Below are positions 1 through 52,084 of a stretch of DNA of 64,000 nt, piece after piece. Both the position numbers and the translations under genes were made by a program. Source of the stretch: a virus (lineage: Duplodnaviria; Caudoviricetes); IMG/VR virus record IMGVR_UViG_3300029705_006902, positions 10,709 to 74,708 of that record; one strand, given 5' to 3'. Position 1 is the stretch's first letter. Every line of letters begins with the position of its first letter. The notes under the pieces were generated by a model, which saw only the letters and a list, made by a program, of their open reading frames with translations, had not been told where the DNA came from and ran no database searches.

Positions 1-295
1 ATCAGAACACCTGCCGGAACGGTATAGGTTTCGTCTGCCTTTCTTACAGGATACATAACAAGCTCAGTTTTATCGGCATTGAAAAGAACACCGTCAATAA
101 GAGCGTAGGTGGAATTTCCTTCCGCGAGCTTAAACTCGGCAAAATAGTTATTGCCATAAGCATCCATCTCATTCACAGTTGAAGGGATTGACAGAGAAAC
201 AGCATTGGACAAATCATAAAAAGATCCCTGTCGAATATTCGTTATACCTTCCTCAATTACAACATCTTTAATGCTGCTTTCATAAGCCAGCCAGG
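1..295 (-). pseudogene. Displaced downstream part of a BspA-like leucine-rich-repeat surface protein (runs off the left edge)
   Basis: Manual translation of the minus strand gives an open frame (P)WLAYESSIKDVVIEEGITNIRQGSFYDLSNAVSLSIPSTV...IDGVLFNADKTELVMYPVRKADETYTVPAGVL, typical of LRR_5/BspA repeats. It has no start of its own and joins ORF 877..1536 in frame if 292..1535 is inverted. Confidence 0.85.
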
Positions 296-47142: not shown

Positions 47143-49449
47143 TTAATCAGAGAAAGCATAATAAGCAATGCCGGCAAGAACAAAGAAAACACACGGCAGA
47201 GCTACTCCGTTGCCCCACATCTTATACTCTGCAGCATCGGAGTAGGGGTCGGTTAACCATTTCCTTATTTGCTTTTCTGTTTTCGGCTTTGAAGAGCCGT
47301 TTGTTATGATTCTATAAGATTCAAAGACTTCACTCCAGAATTGCACATCTTCTTCAGTGGGGTCGCTATTAAGATTTGAACACCACCAATCAGGAAAGCC
47401 CTGTAGCCTGGCACATTCTGTGGGTGTAAGTCTTCGAACTGCATAATGGGGATCTATAATGCCGTTTTGATAACCGGGGTTCGTACCATTCACAAGGGTG
47501 TTTGATACATTAGTTCTCGGTGATTGGCATTCCGCTTTCATCTGCGGATAAAATGACACCGGTTGTGCTACAGCACCGGGGCCACGGGAAGTGAGCGTAG
47601 GTTGTTTGTCTTTTTCAATGCCCGGTTTATACTGTGCGTTCTGACCTTGATTAAAGGCTGCACGGTCTATTCCGTAGCAAGGTTCATTTACGATTGCAGC
47701 ATCTTTATAATCTCTTGAAAGAAGAGTTGGAGATTTTTCTTTTATCGGCTGTGCATAATATCCGGTGGTCATCGAGTAAACCGCGTGTCGGTCAACAGTA
47801 TTGAGAGTATACATAACATCGGATTCTTTGAAACCATCACCTTGGTGAGAGGGTCGAGAACCATTACCTTCAATAACAATAGTTTTATCCTTGACGCAAA
47901 CAGCGGGTTCACCACCATGAGTACAGGCAAGAGTAGGAGCAACCTCCTCACTTACACTGCACGAGCTTTTACCCCCACCTTGGTCTACACACACCACAGC
48001 AATACCGCCTTGATTGCAACCGGGATTTCCTCCGTTGGCATCAAGGGTTCTGCTTGTATCTGCTTCATAAATACCGCTGTGAGGGTTATCGGACAGCATC
48101 GCATTTGATTTATCGGCACTAATACCGAAAGGTTGAAGAACGCAATTGAAATGGTTTTTGTCAGGCATTCGCTGACTACCACCGGCATTATGAGCTGTAA
48201 GGGTTCCGGCTGTTTGTTCACCATCCCAATTACACGGCTCAAAAAGAGTCTGATCATTGTTGCAAGCGAGGGTTGCCGATTTGTTTTCCTGTATCAAAGG
48301 ACCCTTCCCACCGCCTTCACAGCCACTGCGTATTTTCATAACGAGAGGGACATTCCCTCCACCTGTTCCCATTCGGGAAGTTAGGGTTTGTATTGTTTCA
48401 CTCTCGTCAAGTTTAACTCTGCTGTCTGCCGGATGATTCTCAAGAGCGATTGCGGCCGGAACAACCCCTGCACGGAGTGTAGGTGAGCGTTCCTCTTCAT
48501 ATCCTATGGTTCGGCTTTTGGCTGAATGCTCTGTACAAAAACCTGCGGACTCCATTACACACGGAGGATGATGTGCTTCGGCTCTTAATGTAGCCGTAAC
48601 ATCTTCTGTTACATCCATTCGGCTTCCGCCTTGGTCATTCAGAATAATTCCGTTCCTACCTGTGGACATCCCACAGTTCACTCCAAGAGTTGAAGAAACC
48701 TCATCGGTTACGACTCCGTTATAGCCATCGAAGCCTGACGCTCCAACGCAAGTCGAAGAACCTCCGGTAGCTCTTTGCCACGCACGGAAGCTCTCCGCAG
48801 AATACCTTGACAGGCCTTCTGACTCAAATAGTATTTTTCCGGCACTCCTACTTGCAAAATCTGCGACAAGATAGATGCGTTTTCTTCGTTGGGGTACTCC
48901 GAAATATTGTGCGTCAAGAACGCGGTAAGCAATGCTCCATCCGTCTCCCATGATAAGGTCGGCGTAAGCCCATCTTCCTTTTTCAGGCATAGGCACCTGG
49001 GCATTCGGTTCGATGACACCAATGAACGCTTCGAGTACGGCACGGAAATCTTCGCCTTTGTTTGAGGAGAAGGCTCCGGGGACATTTTCCCAGACTGCGT
49101 ATCTTGGGTATTTGCCATTTGTGGCACACCTCATTTCTTTTATAATTCTGATTGCTTCATAAAACAAAACCGACTGTGTTCCATCAAGTCCGGCTCTCTT
49201 ACCCGCAACTGACATATCCGTGCAAGGAGAACCAAATGAGATTATATCGACGGGTTCAACTTCTGCACCATTGATTTTTGAAACATCTCCGTAGTGTTTC
49301 ATGAAAGGAAGTCGCTTTGTTGTTACCCTTATAGGGAACGGCTCAATCTCCGATGCCCACACAGGAGTAATTCCTGCAAGCAAACCACCTAAAGGAAACC
49401 CACCAGACCCATCAAAGAGACTGGCGAGCGTTAATGTATTATCTTTCAT
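47143..49449 (-). CDS. DNA (cytosine-5)-methyltransferase with ~400-aa repetitive variable region
   Basis: SLFDGSGG (I), GSPC (IV), ENV (VI), PQRRKR (VIII), RRLTPTECARLQGFPD (IX), GNGV (X). Confidence 0.95.
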   Translation of the reverse strand: MKDNTLTLASLFDGSGGFPLGGLLAGITPVWASEIEPFPIRVTTKRLPFMKHYGDVSKINGAEVEPVDIISFGSPCTDMSVAGKRAGLDGTQSVLFYEAIRIIKEMRCATNGKYPRYAVWENVPGAFSSNKGEDFRAVLEAFIGVIEPNAQVPMPEKGRWAYADLIMGDGWSIAYRVLDAQYFGVPQRRKRIYLVADFASRSAGKILFESEGLSRYSAESFRAWQRATGGSSTCVGASGFDGYNGVVTDEVSSTLGVNCGMSTGRNGIILNDQGGSRMDVTEDVTATLRAEAHHPPCVMESAGFCTEHSAKSRTIGYEEERSPTLRAGVVPAAIALENHPADSRVKLDESETIQTLTSRMGTGGGNVPLVMKIRSGCEGGGKGPLIQENKSATLACNNDQTLFEPCNWDGEQTAGTLTAHNAGGSQRMPDKNHFNCVLQPFGISADKSNAMLSDNPHSGIYEADTSRTLDANGGNPGCNQGGIAVVCVDQGGGKSSCSVSEEVAPTLACTHGGEPAVCVKDKTIVIEGNGSRPSHQGDGFKESDVMYTLNTVDRHAVYSMTTGYYAQPIKEKSPTLLSRDYKDAAIVNEPCYGIDRAAFNQGQNAQYKPGIEKDKQPTLTSRGPGAVAQPVSFYPQMKAECQSPRTNVSNTLVNGTNPGYQNGIIDPHYAVRRLTPTECARLQGFPDWWCSNLNSDPTEEDVQFWSEVFESYRIITNGSSKPKTEKQIRKWLTDPYSDAAEYKMWGNGVALPCVFFVLAGIAYYAFSD
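48708..49118 (-). CDS. Nested same-strand alternative-frame ORF, M.EcoHK31I-beta-like
   Basis: RBS GAGGTG 8 nt before ATG 49118; EYPNEENASILSQILQVGVPEKYYLSQKACQGILRRASVRGKELP. Confidence 0.6.
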   Translation of the reverse strand: MANTQDTQSGKMSPEPSPQTKAKISVPYSKRSLVSSNRMPRCLCLKKEDGLTPTLSWETDGALLTAFLTHNISEYPNEENASILSQILQVGVPEKYYLSQKACQGILRRASVRGKELPEVLRLALERQASMAITES

Positions 49450-49462
49450 ATATTAACCCTCC

Positions 49463-50713
49463 TTAAAAAAGAGGAATAACATCGTCTTCACCGGAAACCT
49501 CGTCAAAACTGTATGTTAAGCCGTCACGCTGCACGGAAACTTCTGCCGAAGAGCCGACCTGCTCAATATACCTTTTTACGATTACATCGCAGAACTTCTC
49601 ATCAAGCTCTACAGTGTAGCAAATTCGGTCGGTCTGTTCACAGGCAATAAGGGTACTGCCCGAACCACCGAAGGGGTCAAGGACGATTGAGTTTGACATA
49701 CTTGAATTCATAATGGGATAGGCAAGAAGCGGTATAGGTTTCATTGTAGGATGTTCACCGTTTTTCTTCGGCTTATCGAATTCCCAAATGGTCGATTCTT
49801 TTCTTCCTGTGTACCACAAATGCTTACCCTTTTTCTTCCATCCGAAAAGGCAAGGCTCGTGCTGCCACTGATAAGGACTCCTGCCAAGCACTAATGACTG
49901 TTTTTTCCAAATGCAACAACCTGAAAGATTGAAGCCAGCGTCGTTGAATGCTTTTCTGAAATTCAAACCCTCTGTGTCTGCATGGAAAACATAAATGGAA
50001 GCATCATCTGCCATAGCACTTTCAGTGCATTTGAAAGCATCAAGAAGGAAATTATAAAATGAATCGTTATCCATATTATCGTTTTTGATTTTACCAGCCG
50101 AACCTTCGTAGTTTACATTGTAGGGAGGGTCGGTAATAACGAGGTTTGCTTTCTTACCACACATGAGCAGTTCAAAAGTTTCTGCTTTAGTGCTGTCACC
50201 GCAGACGAGTCTATGTCTGCCAAGTGTCCACACGTCACCGGGTTTAGAAAAAGACGGGTTTTGGAGTTCGGCTTCAACATCGAAGTCATCTTCCTTTATC
50301 CCGTCCTTAACGCTATCTTTAAATAAATCATCAAGCTCTGCTGTTTCAAAGCCTGTGAGGCTTACATCAAAATCCGCAGCCTGGAGATCAGTGATAAGAA
50401 GAGCAAGTTTATCTTTATCCCACTCACCGCTGATTTTATTAAGAGCGATGTTGAGAGCCTTTTCTTTTTCTTCTGAAAGTTCGACTACAACGCAGTCAAC
50501 TTCGGTGTAGCCCATATCCATAAGAACCTTGAGTCGCTGATGACCGCCAACAACTTTTCCGGTGGTCTTGTTCCATATGACGGGTTCTACATAACCGAAC
50601 TGTTCAATTGAACGCTTCAGCTTTTCATACTCGGCATCACCGGGTTTGAGGTCTTTTCGAGGATTATATTCCGCTGGCAGAAGTTCTGCTACTTTCTTTT
50701 TCTCAATAATCAT
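49463..50713 (-). CDS. ParB-N domain plus N6/N4 DNA methyltransferase
   Basis: YNPRK...GGHQR ParB domain; DPPY; HPTMKP; DPFGGSGST. Confidence 0.93.
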   Translation of the reverse strand: MIIEKKKVAELLPAEYNPRKDLKPGDAEYEKLKRSIEQFGYVEPVIWNKTTGKVVGGHQRLKVLMDMGYTEVDCVVVELSEEKEKALNIALNKISGEWDKDKLALLITDLQAADFDVSLTGFETAELDDLFKDSVKDGIKEDDFDVEAELQNPSFSKPGDVWTLGRHRLVCGDSTKAETFELLMCGKKANLVITDPPYNVNYEGSAGKIKNDNMDNDSFYNFLLDAFKCTESAMADDASIYVFHADTEGLNFRKAFNDAGFNLSGCCIWKKQSLVLGRSPYQWQHEPCLFGWKKKGKHLWYTGRKESTIWEFDKPKKNGEHPTMKPIPLLAYPIMNSSMSNSIVLDPFGGSGSTLIACEQTDRICYTVELDEKFCDVIVKRYIEQVGSSAEVSVQRDGLTYSFDEVSGEDDVIPLF

Positions 50714-51492
50714 ACGAGACCCCACTCGGCAAATTTCTCAAAGCCACCAATGTCGCTTATGTATTTTCTTGCCGTTTCTACAATTTCAGAATAAGGAACA
50801 CCGTTTACTTTCTCATCACCGATTGAACAGCAAAACTCAACAGGCTTACCCGTTTTCTGTGCTTCAAGGAAAGCATAAATATTTACGCTCACATCAGCCT
50901 TTGATAAGTCCTTACCGTGAAGGCCACCACCGGTTACTCCATCGGCCATATCAGAACCGAGCTTTCTGTTTGTAGCACCCGTGTCAACATTAATACCACC
51001 GGTCCAGTCACCGAGAGGATTTACCTTTGCGCCGGGATACAGTCTTTCAAGAATGCGAGAAGAAACATTGCTCTGACAAATGGTGAGTTCGATGCCGTTG
51101 ATTATGAACTTACCATCATAAGGGCAGAGACTATATAAATCTCTTGCAATATGTGACAGTTCTTTTTGTTCGGGTGTTAAAGGCATACCTTTAAAGATGC
51201 CGTTATCACCACAGCGGATTGTATTCTTCTGATTGTTTGCGAGATGCTTATCCTGGGGTACGATATGAATATCGAAACCGACATTACCTGCAATTCTTGC
51301 TATAACCTTGGCTACATCAATTTCATCAATGTCAGCAGAGGTTTCAACAATCACCGTGCAGTTTCCGTGACCGATAAGAACCTCAACTGCAATCTTGGGG
51401 TCTTTTTCTTTTCTGTATGCCAGGTCAACAATACCCCCGGCAATTCTGTCCGCTATCTTATCAGGATGCGAAGGGTTTACTTTTTCAAACAT
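50710..51492 (-). CDS. metK: Miniature S-adenosylmethionine synthetase (MetK-like, 260 aa)
   Basis: SHPDK, GDNG, DGK, GG..DTGATNRK, GGGLHGKDLSKAD motifs. Confidence 0.85.
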   Translation of the reverse strand: MFEKVNPSHPDKIADRIAGGIVDLAYRKEKDPKIAVEVLIGHGNCTVIVETSADIDEIDVAKVIARIAGNVGFDIHIVPQDKHLANNQKNTIRCGDNGIFKGMPLTPEQKELSHIARDLYSLCPYDGKFIINGIELTICQSNVSSRILERLYPGAKVNPLGDWTGGINVDTGATNRKLGSDMADGVTGGGLHGKDLSKADVSVNIYAFLEAQKTGKPVEFCCSIGDEKVNGVPYSEIVETARKYISDIGGFEKFAEWGLV

Positions 51493-51526
51493 AATGTTAA
51501 TCCTTTCCGAGCTGTATGCTCTTTGT

Positions 51527-52084
51527 TTATTTTCTTCCCTTGCGAGCTTGCAGCAAACGCTCCATAGCATCGTCCTGGGGTGTTGCACCTCCATACTCTC
51601 CGGTGCAGTTTTCTTTGACAATCTGGAAAATCTCCATCCACAGTCTGTTGGTCTGTGACATGAAGTTTTGAGCCATAGCTACATAGGGACTCTGAATCGC
51701 ATTACCCGTCGTTGGGTGTTTCGCAAGGAAACCGAACTCGGTAATTGCCGTTTCGCATTGAATCCATCTTGCTACGCTCATCGCATATCTTTCCAGGAGC
51801 TGCGGTGAAACCAAGGCGGTACATTTTCTTTCCGCCAACCACTGCCAGGTTGTTTCATACACATCGGCAGCTATCAGTTTCTTACCGTCTTTTTGGGTTG
51901 CAGATAACATCTCGGAAGGTTTCGGCATCGGTTGACCTTCTAAATCGACTGAATCATTATTAAAGTCGATGACAGTCAGCTTTCTTTTTCCGGGGTTTCC
52001 TTCAGCAATTTTATCTGCAAGAGGCTTCTTTTTAGCACCCGAGCCAACACGAGCGCCGCCTCTATTGGTGCCGTCTTTTGCCAC
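51527..52084 (-). CDS. terS: Terminase small subunit (P27 family)
   Basis: RGGARVGSG.K, GNPGKR, QSPYV; upstream of the packaging block. Confidence 0.85.
   Translation of the reverse strand: MAKDGTNRGGARVGSGAKKKPLADKIAEGNPGKRKLTVIDFNNDSVDLEGQPMPKPSEMLSATQKDGKKLIAADVYETTWQWLAERKCTALVSPQLLERYAMSVARWIQCETAITEFGFLAKHPTTGNAIQSPYVAMAQNFMSQTNRLWMEIFQIVKENCTGEYGGATPQDDAMERLLQARKGRK

Follow-up and report, generated by a model that had tools for sequence, protein, structure and literature searches.

A conserved, unannotated gene nested in the +1 frame of phage C5 cytosine methyltransferase genes

The 64,000-nucleotide stretch of Caudoviricetes virus DNA analyzed here (IMGVR_UViG_3300029705_006902, hereafter "the window") carries on its minus strand a phage gene for a 768-amino-acid C5 cytosine DNA methyltransferase, inside which a second open reading frame (ORF) on the same strand runs for 136 codons. 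This arrangement raises the question of whether the nested ORF is a gene in its own right and, if so, what its product could contribute to the enzyme that it overlaps. To our knowledge, overlapping genes of more than 100 codons with clear evidence of selection are rare in tailed phages, and such genes are invisible to standard gene callers. We find that the nested ORF is a genuine overlapping gene under frame-specific selection that has gone unannotated. We also favor, with a probability of roughly 0.6, the interpretation that it encodes a separately translated small subunit, which would supply in trans the segment that follows motif VIII of the methyltransferase.

Results

The nested frame is open and its start signals are conserved

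The host protein matches the methyltransferase families PF00145 (E 9e-41) and TIGR00675 (E 6.5e-38), and its full-length homologues number in the thousands. Motifs I, IV (Pro-Cys), VI (ENV), VIII (QxRxR), IX, and X are all present in canonical order (Table 1). The main chain also includes about 11 repeat units built around a TL dipeptide (positions 47432-48732; for example, SPTLRAG, ATLRAE, QTLTSR, and APTLAC). Whole units are gained or lost between homologues, as seen from gaps in the codon alignment, and differences in length are usually located in this array.

The nested frame is the +1 frame of the host, such that each nested codon begins at the second base of a host codon. An earlier note on this DNA had described a same-strand ORF of this length over motifs VI to VIII, preceded by its own ribosome-binding site GAGGTG, and both features are confirmed at the positions given in Table 1. 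A mechanical ORF call instead starts at GTG 49127 and yields 139 codons, but this GTG sits within GAGGTG. The host codons ATG-AGG-TGT (Met-Arg-Cys) form both this Shine-Dalgarno (SD)-like sequence and the TGA that closes the nested frame upstream. The ORF spans host motifs VI and VIII and about 55 codons more. It had been said to end exactly where the repeats begin, which holds only approximately given that the stop codon lies inside the first TL unit (GFDGYNGVVT). The predicted product begins MANTQDTQSGKM and contains the strings LSQIL, PEKYYLS, ILRRA, and RGKELP, as previously listed.

We compared this region across 80 viral loci with full-length homologues that are 58-78% identical, and used 70 non-redundant sequences for the codon alignment and for all measures of selection. 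In all 80 loci, the +1 frame is open for 131-142 codons from the same TGA, and in 80 of the 81 genes that comprise these loci and the window, no off-frame open stretch is longer. When synonymous codons are reshuffled with the methylase protein held fixed, the proportion of trials in which the frame stays open averages about 16% per sequence and is 1% for the window, whereas it is open in all 70 non-redundant sequences. Its persistence is therefore more than expected by chance. The start signals are likewise retained, with GAGG followed by ATG or GTG in 68 of the 70 homologues. The same 68 use the arginine codon AGG in the host Met-Arg pair (ATG-AGG), a rare codon that is fixed where it builds the SD sequence.

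The nested protein of the window has no exact match in the protein collection, which indicates that gene callers did not call the gene there. Parts of the methylase gene are present in two RNA-library runs, as contigs only, which cannot reveal transcription start, strand, or translation.

Selection acts on opposite frames in different parts of the gene

The nested product can be divided into a leader (residues 1-80) and a conserved module (residues 82-130), and the signature of dual coding, namely suppressed host-synonymous variation together with nested-frame periodicity, is strong in the module and weak in the leader. Over the module (host residues 189-235), diversity at host third positions falls to 0.06-0.25, compared to 0.5-0.6 gene-wide and 0.31-0.44 over host residues 105-185. 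The most variable host position in this region is the first (0.28-0.44), which is the third position of nested codons, whereas elsewhere it is the third. Mean pairwise identity over the module is 0.83 for the nested frame versus 0.66 for the host frame; in control regions, the host frame scores 0.74-0.83 and the +1 frame only 0.41-0.45.

A census of alleles gives the same picture. Among changes that alter the host protein and are silent in the nested frame, 65 of 83 possible ones are seen over the module, versus 27-36% in controls. The reverse holds for changes that are silent in the host and alter the nested protein, with 20 of 84 seen, versus 96-97% in controls. Thus, nested residues 82-130 are under strong purifying selection, while the overlapping host tail is nearly free to vary. 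These observations bear out the dual-frame conservation that the earlier note had proposed looking for. The host frame is also open across the module in 80 of 80 loci, and its tail (ILFESEGLS...WQRATGG) is uninterrupted in all 70 homologues, yet 78% of the possible host-nonsynonymous, nested-synonymous changes occur there. Because its frame is preserved while its amino acid sequence is hardly constrained, the tail is best understood as a linker.

In the leader, frame-specific constraint is weak, with identities of 0.58 for the +1 frame and 0.55 for the +2 frame. Host-silent changes that would create a stop codon in the nested frame are nonetheless depleted, with 4 of 9 seen compared to 9 of 9 and 14 of 15 in controls.

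At positions 48720-48962 of the window, a stretch that holds the module, public sequencing runs pile up contig pieces from several related but differing phages, to a depth of up to 31 and with many loose ends, whereas the flanks lack such a pattern. This fits with the stretch being the most conserved DNA of the gene.

Relatives carry the nested domain on split and permuted enzymes

A HMMER scan with the nested protein matched 3,407 representative proteins at E <= 0.001, the best 150 of which were used to count architectures. Many matches are the small ORF alone; in longer proteins, methylase parts follow the domain, which occupies an N-terminal or near-N-terminal position. In 24 of the best 150 representatives, as well as in L082 and in the second ORF (ORF2) of L081, L084, and L086, the nested domain is located N-terminal to the target-recognition domain (TRD), motif IX, and motif X.

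Inspection of the DNA surrounding such matches reveals three architectures: fused, split, and split with circular permutation. The window and its 80 homologues are of the fused type. In the split locus L082, ORF1 carries motifs I-VIII, and ORF2 starts in the +1 frame about 390 nucleotides before the end of ORF1 and continues through TL units and motifs IX and X. A further division is seen in Mycobacterium phage Lucky2013 (L091:1511-2711), where gene 113 (motifs I-VIII) overlaps a nested ORF of 157 codons (1686-2159) that is followed by gene 114 (motifs IX-X). Gene 114 is in the same frame as the nested ORF, with a stop codon between them, and therefore the enzyme appears, from its gene layout, to be made of three pieces. 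In the related phage Omega, gene 127 at the matching place is labelled only "hypothetical protein."

The split and permuted form is found in L084 (1900-4201) and L086 (4823-6575). A short ORF1 encodes only motifs IV-VIII and is overlapped in the +1 frame by a long ORF2 that carries the nested domain, TRD units, and motifs IX and X, followed by motifs I-II at its C-terminus. The chain is thus broken between motifs II and IV and again after motif VIII. L081 (1-1897) has the same long ORF2, although its short ORF1 is cut by the contig end. In its treatment of type H enzymes and of a search for motif X before motif I, a published survey (PMC5944983) makes no mention of this form. A permuted methylase chain in another locus, L085 (5001-6713 of a 47-kb phage contig), is readable only if TAG encodes glutamine, which suggests that this is a stop-codon-recoded phage.

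In every architecture, the nested domain overlaps motifs VI-VIII of the catalytic ORF. Judged from these gene arrangements, the nested frame of the split and permuted relatives is the N-terminus of the second methylase subunit, and hence would be part of the enzyme.

The module probably corresponds to the segment after motif VIII

AlphaFold2 models of the nested protein alone predict a helix-turn-helix hairpin at residues ~95-130 (predicted local distance difference test, pLDDT, of 87-92) preceded by a low-confidence leader (46-61). A relative of the ORF2 type yields the same pattern, with a leader pLDDT of 33-42. The module is therefore predicted to be a small, basic, helical hairpin. Attempts to assign a fold by comparing the models to the PDB with Foldseek and VIA-align returned only generic helical-hairpin matches (Z up to 5.2).

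Searches for a family were similarly sparse. The nested-protein profile gave only a chance match among PDB sequences (E 1.5), the PHROGs collection offered one weak match to a 139-position family labelled DNA methyltransferase, and the nearest clusters in the ESM Atlas are unnamed, mostly viral "hypothetical proteins" of 97-121 amino acids that belong to no family. We rejected the possibility of paralogy between the module and motif IX upon finding no match by hhalign between the nested profile and the main-chain profile. By this comparison, the main chain contains no counterpart of the module at all. A separate protein, P0218, matches nested residues 79-108 (LLSELLAGAPERFMLN-like), but is a 1,621-amino-acid chain of 14 near-identical repeats and is probably a low-complexity tandem repeat unrelated to the nested protein.

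The nested profile does align to E. coli Dcm. The hhalign search gives a single match, to Dcm residues 277-336, which is weak (E 0.009-0.012, probability 4-5%) and directly follows motif VIII, with the shared pattern T-L-x-Q-L/I-L ... K-Y-x-L-T/S ... R-x-A. Furthermore, the envelope of TIGR00675, the dcm superfamily model, starts at the module on ORF2-type proteins. Taken together, the position of the Dcm match, the TIGR00675 envelope, and the lack of a main-chain counterpart suggest that the module probably represents the segment found after motif VIII in canonical C5 methyltransferases. The resemblance to this segment proposed in the earlier note thus stands with respect to position and to its absence from the main frame, while the match itself is faint.

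The module is widespread among phages and is missed by annotation

When the 57-residue module alone was used as a tblastn query, 137 GenBank phage records were matched. These include phages of Vibrio (26), Mycobacterium (19), Escherichia (13, including the dmt gene of P1), Streptococcus, Pseudomonas, Pectobacterium, Caulobacter, and Akkermansia. The module was found in the +1 frame in phages of Streptococcus, Vibrio, Mycobacterium, Caulobacter, Enterobacter, and E. coli (P1 dmt). In all eight GenBank records that were opened (Javan261, BL94, NatCom_21982, P1, Lucky2013, CP-T1, Omega, and CobraSix), the match is +1 to an annotated methylase coding sequence and the nested gene is unannotated, in agreement with the earlier expectation that standard annotation would miss it. 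In P1 dmt, an unannotated +1 ORF of 162 codons ends in the same module (L090:2174-2662; NC_005856.1 66713-67201). No published description of a gene nested in P1 dmt or in phage C5 methylases was found.

We compared the window with P1, CP-T1, BL94, Lucky2013, and Javan261 over the stretch of 55 codons that follows motif VIII. The nested frame retains 27-36 identities (scores 109-165), whereas the host frame retains 16-26 (scores 48-101), although motif VIII itself falls in the host stretch.

Many relatives carry an additional feature at the N-terminus. Within the first 45 residues of 63 of the best 150 relatives (P0128-P0270), there is a sequence of the form Q-[LMVI]-[ST]-[LI]-F-[DG], such as QMSIFD or QLSLFG, identified by pattern match only, and the nested ORF of Lucky2013 encodes QLDLF (L091:1686-1720). 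The pentapeptide that binds the bacterial sliding clamp is QL[SD]LF. The Q-x-S/T-L/I-F motif of these relatives resembles this peptide and is followed by the disordered leader. The motif is absent from the nested protein of the window, whose subgroup, by comparison with these sequences, would have lost it.

Discussion

A proposed small subunit provided in trans

We propose that translation begins at ATG 49118, where methylase codons form an internal SD sequence, and proceeds through 136 codons of the +1 frame. The product would consist of a leader of some 80 disordered residues followed by a helical module of some 50. The module would be the counterpart of the segment after motif VIII that, in single-chain enzymes, opens the variable, target-recognition part; in this phage clade, such a segment would lie out of frame with motif VIII. 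The nested protein would bind the 768-amino-acid chain non-covalently and thereby complete or tune the enzyme. We infer both that the nested ORF is translated and that its product is needed for activity.

The three architectures can be accommodated by a simple evolutionary path. An ancestral frame change after motif VIII may have split a catalytic half from a half carrying the module, TRD, and motifs IX and X. The downstream half could then have acquired a start by extending backward over motifs VI-VIII, which would account for an overprinted, disordered, and weakly constrained leader, while the upstream half would have run over the module in a new frame and so gained its free-to-vary tail. 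In the subgroup of the window, a second frame change after the module could have rejoined this tail to the TRD and motifs IX and X, leaving the module and leader as a free-standing protein of 136 amino acids with its own start. Strong selection continues in 70 diverged fused genes, which argues that the nested protein still works, and its covalent link to methylase parts in relatives argues that it works with the enzyme.

Several points weigh against this interpretation. With all six catalytic motifs present, the main chain looks like a complete methylase on its own, so the small protein may be dispensable for catalysis. The leader is under little constraint at the amino acid level. The module alone matches no Pfam, NCBIfam, or PDB family, and its alignment to Dcm is weak, as described above. 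Two homologues that use the arginine codon AGA (L038 and L065) lack the conserved SD and start, and would need to start about 12 codons downstream, at the first available ATG, which is formed by the codons of the ENV motif. That these two loci have lost SD and start together nevertheless speaks for a function of the usual pair.

Alternatively, the nested gene could be real and its product not a structural part of the methylase, but rather a regulator of the enzyme, an adaptor such as a replisome tether, or a DNA-binding or anti-defence protein that shares the locus. We consider this possible, if rather improbable. All catalytic motifs reside on the main chain, the module is a small basic hairpin of no detectable family, and the N-terminal Q-x-S/T-L/I-F motif followed by a disordered linker in many relatives is adaptor-like. 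However, the window's own protein is without this motif, the position of the module matches a canonical methylase segment (Dcm 277-336), and in split and permuted relatives the domain is covalently joined to the TRD and motifs IX and X, as would be expected of a physical part of the enzyme. That no protein is made, and that the pattern reflects an RNA structure, a binding site, or a functionless evolutionary relic, is hardly credible. The weak frame-specific constraint on the leader would suit such an explanation, but variation in the module repeats every three bases in register with the nested codons, whose third positions are freest. Moreover, while the host frame diverges, the amino acid sequence of the module persists in phages whose hosts differ greatly in guanine-cytosine content and codon usage, and the nested frame is open in every locus.

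Programmed ribosomal frameshifting, which the earlier note had entertained as a way of assembling the methylase, could in principle take three routes. A shift from the main frame to +1 after motif VIII would give a truncated isoform, a shift of -1 from the nested frame into the main frame at its end would give a chain of module, TRD, and motifs IX and X, and both shifts together would give a canonical single chain. The module would then sit as it does in canonical enzymes, and split relatives do make exactly the chain predicted by the second route. We nonetheless regard frameshifting as very unlikely. Neither border has a conserved slippery heptamer (the 3' border was inspected by eye in 70 aligned homologues), and the sequence of the 3' border and the position of the stop vary between subgroups. 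Any plausible shift site is preceded by 80 open codons, headed by a conserved SD and start codon. Were the shift to occur before the module, the beta strand that follows motif VIII would be lost, and a double shift would not need the host frame to remain open over the module, as it does in all 80 loci. With start signals conserved and no slippery site, the frameshift-assembled reading is unsupported.

A more elaborate version of the subunit hypothesis, which we regard as doubtful, is that the protein tethers the methylase to the replication machinery. An N-terminal peptide would bind the sliding clamp, a disordered linker overprinted on motifs VI-VIII would follow, and the module would dock on or complete the methylase. 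If so, this would be an ancient and overlooked part of the orphan phage C5 clade, ranging from phages of gut Clostridia to P1, Vibrio phage CP-T1, and cluster-J mycobacteriophages, and the subgroup of the window would have kept only the docking module. A clamp tether, if real, would mean that phage DNA is methylated during replication by a bacterial-virus analogue of the link between PCNA and Dnmt1.

Comparison with known systems

The closest precedent is M.EcoHK31I, an alpha/beta C5 methyltransferase whose beta chain is encoded inside the alpha gene in another frame and carries motif IX, which is missing from alpha (PMC2836561). In both cases, a small polypeptide with its own start is encoded in an alternative frame wholly within a C5 methyltransferase gene, and, if the nested chain is indeed a subunit, it would give the enzyme a piece in trans. 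The pieces are not the same, however. The earlier note had called the nested product EcoHK31I-beta-like, which is not upheld in content, and its remark that motif IX remains in the main chain here proved correct. Also, M.EcoHK31I is a single restriction-modification enzyme, whereas the window's enzyme belongs to a large clade of orphan phage methylases. By analogy, the principle would be shared, but the piece is different and the phage clade is both very large and unrelated.

Natural splits such as M.AquI and permutations of the M.BssHII type are known to be tolerated at the junction after motif VIII, as noted in the survey cited above (PMC5944983). Among relatives of the window gene, L082 and Lucky2013 (genes 113 and 114) are split at the same point as M.AquI. 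The window's enzyme differs from such end-to-end splits in having a continuous main chain, from which just a short module is set apart, and in an overlap of about 400 nucleotides between the frames. That survey's account of type H places M.BssHII, M.Alw26I, and others among circularly permuted C5 methyltransferases (PMC5944983). Like these, the long chains of L081, L084, and L086 start in the variable region and place motifs IX-X before motif I. Unlike these, the L084/L086 type is also split, with motifs IV-VIII on a second, overlapping ORF and motifs I-II closing the long chain at its C-terminus. The window gene itself has the unpermuted order. With regard to single-chain enzymes, the nested module aligns to the segment after motif VIII of E. 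coli Dcm (residues about 305-340) and nowhere else in that protein, although the similarity is weak (24-28% over 53-54 columns, E about 0.01), and in Dcm this segment is in frame with motif VIII.

The nested gene lies inside one of the commonest phage accessory genes and in the textbook phage P1. Given that one cluster of host proteins at 90% identity alone has 6,673 member sequences and that P1 carries the gene, many genome annotations would lack it. The fused, split, and split-and-permuted forms constitute a natural series of two- and three-piece C5 methyltransferases around one junction, the same junction after motif VIII that protein engineers have already used to split such enzymes. The nested gene may explain how repeat-rich orphan methylases are assembled or targeted, and its P1 counterpart provides a convenient E. 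coli system in which to test it.

Features of the locus and neighboring genes

Table 1. Positions of the methyltransferase gene, the nested gene, and their parts in the window
Feature	Position	Strand	Details
Host C5 cytosine DNA methyltransferase gene	47143..49449	minus	768 amino acids, phage
Host motifs I, IV, VI (ENV), VIII (QRRKR)	host residues 12-17, 73-76, 121-123, 187-191		from translation
Host motif IX	host residues 672-686		RRLTPTECARLQGFP; main chain
Host motif X	host residues 746-752		GNGVALP; main chain
Host-frame tail	48742..48864	minus	ILFESEGLS...WQRATGG, host residues 196-236; overlaps nested module
Nested +1-frame gene	48708..49118	minus	ATG 49118, last sense codon 48711, TAA 48710-48708; 136 codons
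SD-like GAGGTG	49132-49127	minus	8 nucleotides upstream of ATG 49118
In-frame TGA closing nested frame upstream	49133-49131	minus	overlaps GAGGTG
Leader	48879..49118	minus	nested residues 1-80; Ser/Thr/Pro/Lys-rich, overprinted on host motifs VI-VIII, predicted disordered
Conserved module	48729..48875	minus	nested residues 82-130; LSQIL, KYYLS, ACQGILRRA, RGKELP, ALERQA

Directly upstream of the methylase on the same strand is a gene for a 420-amino-acid ParB-like/N6-or-N4 DNA methyltransferase (49463-50725), and the next ORF upstream, also on this strand, is short and MetK-like (50710-51621). In Streptococcus phage Javan261, an adenine methyltransferase gene directly precedes the C5 methylase gene, with an overlap of 8 nucleotides between the two.

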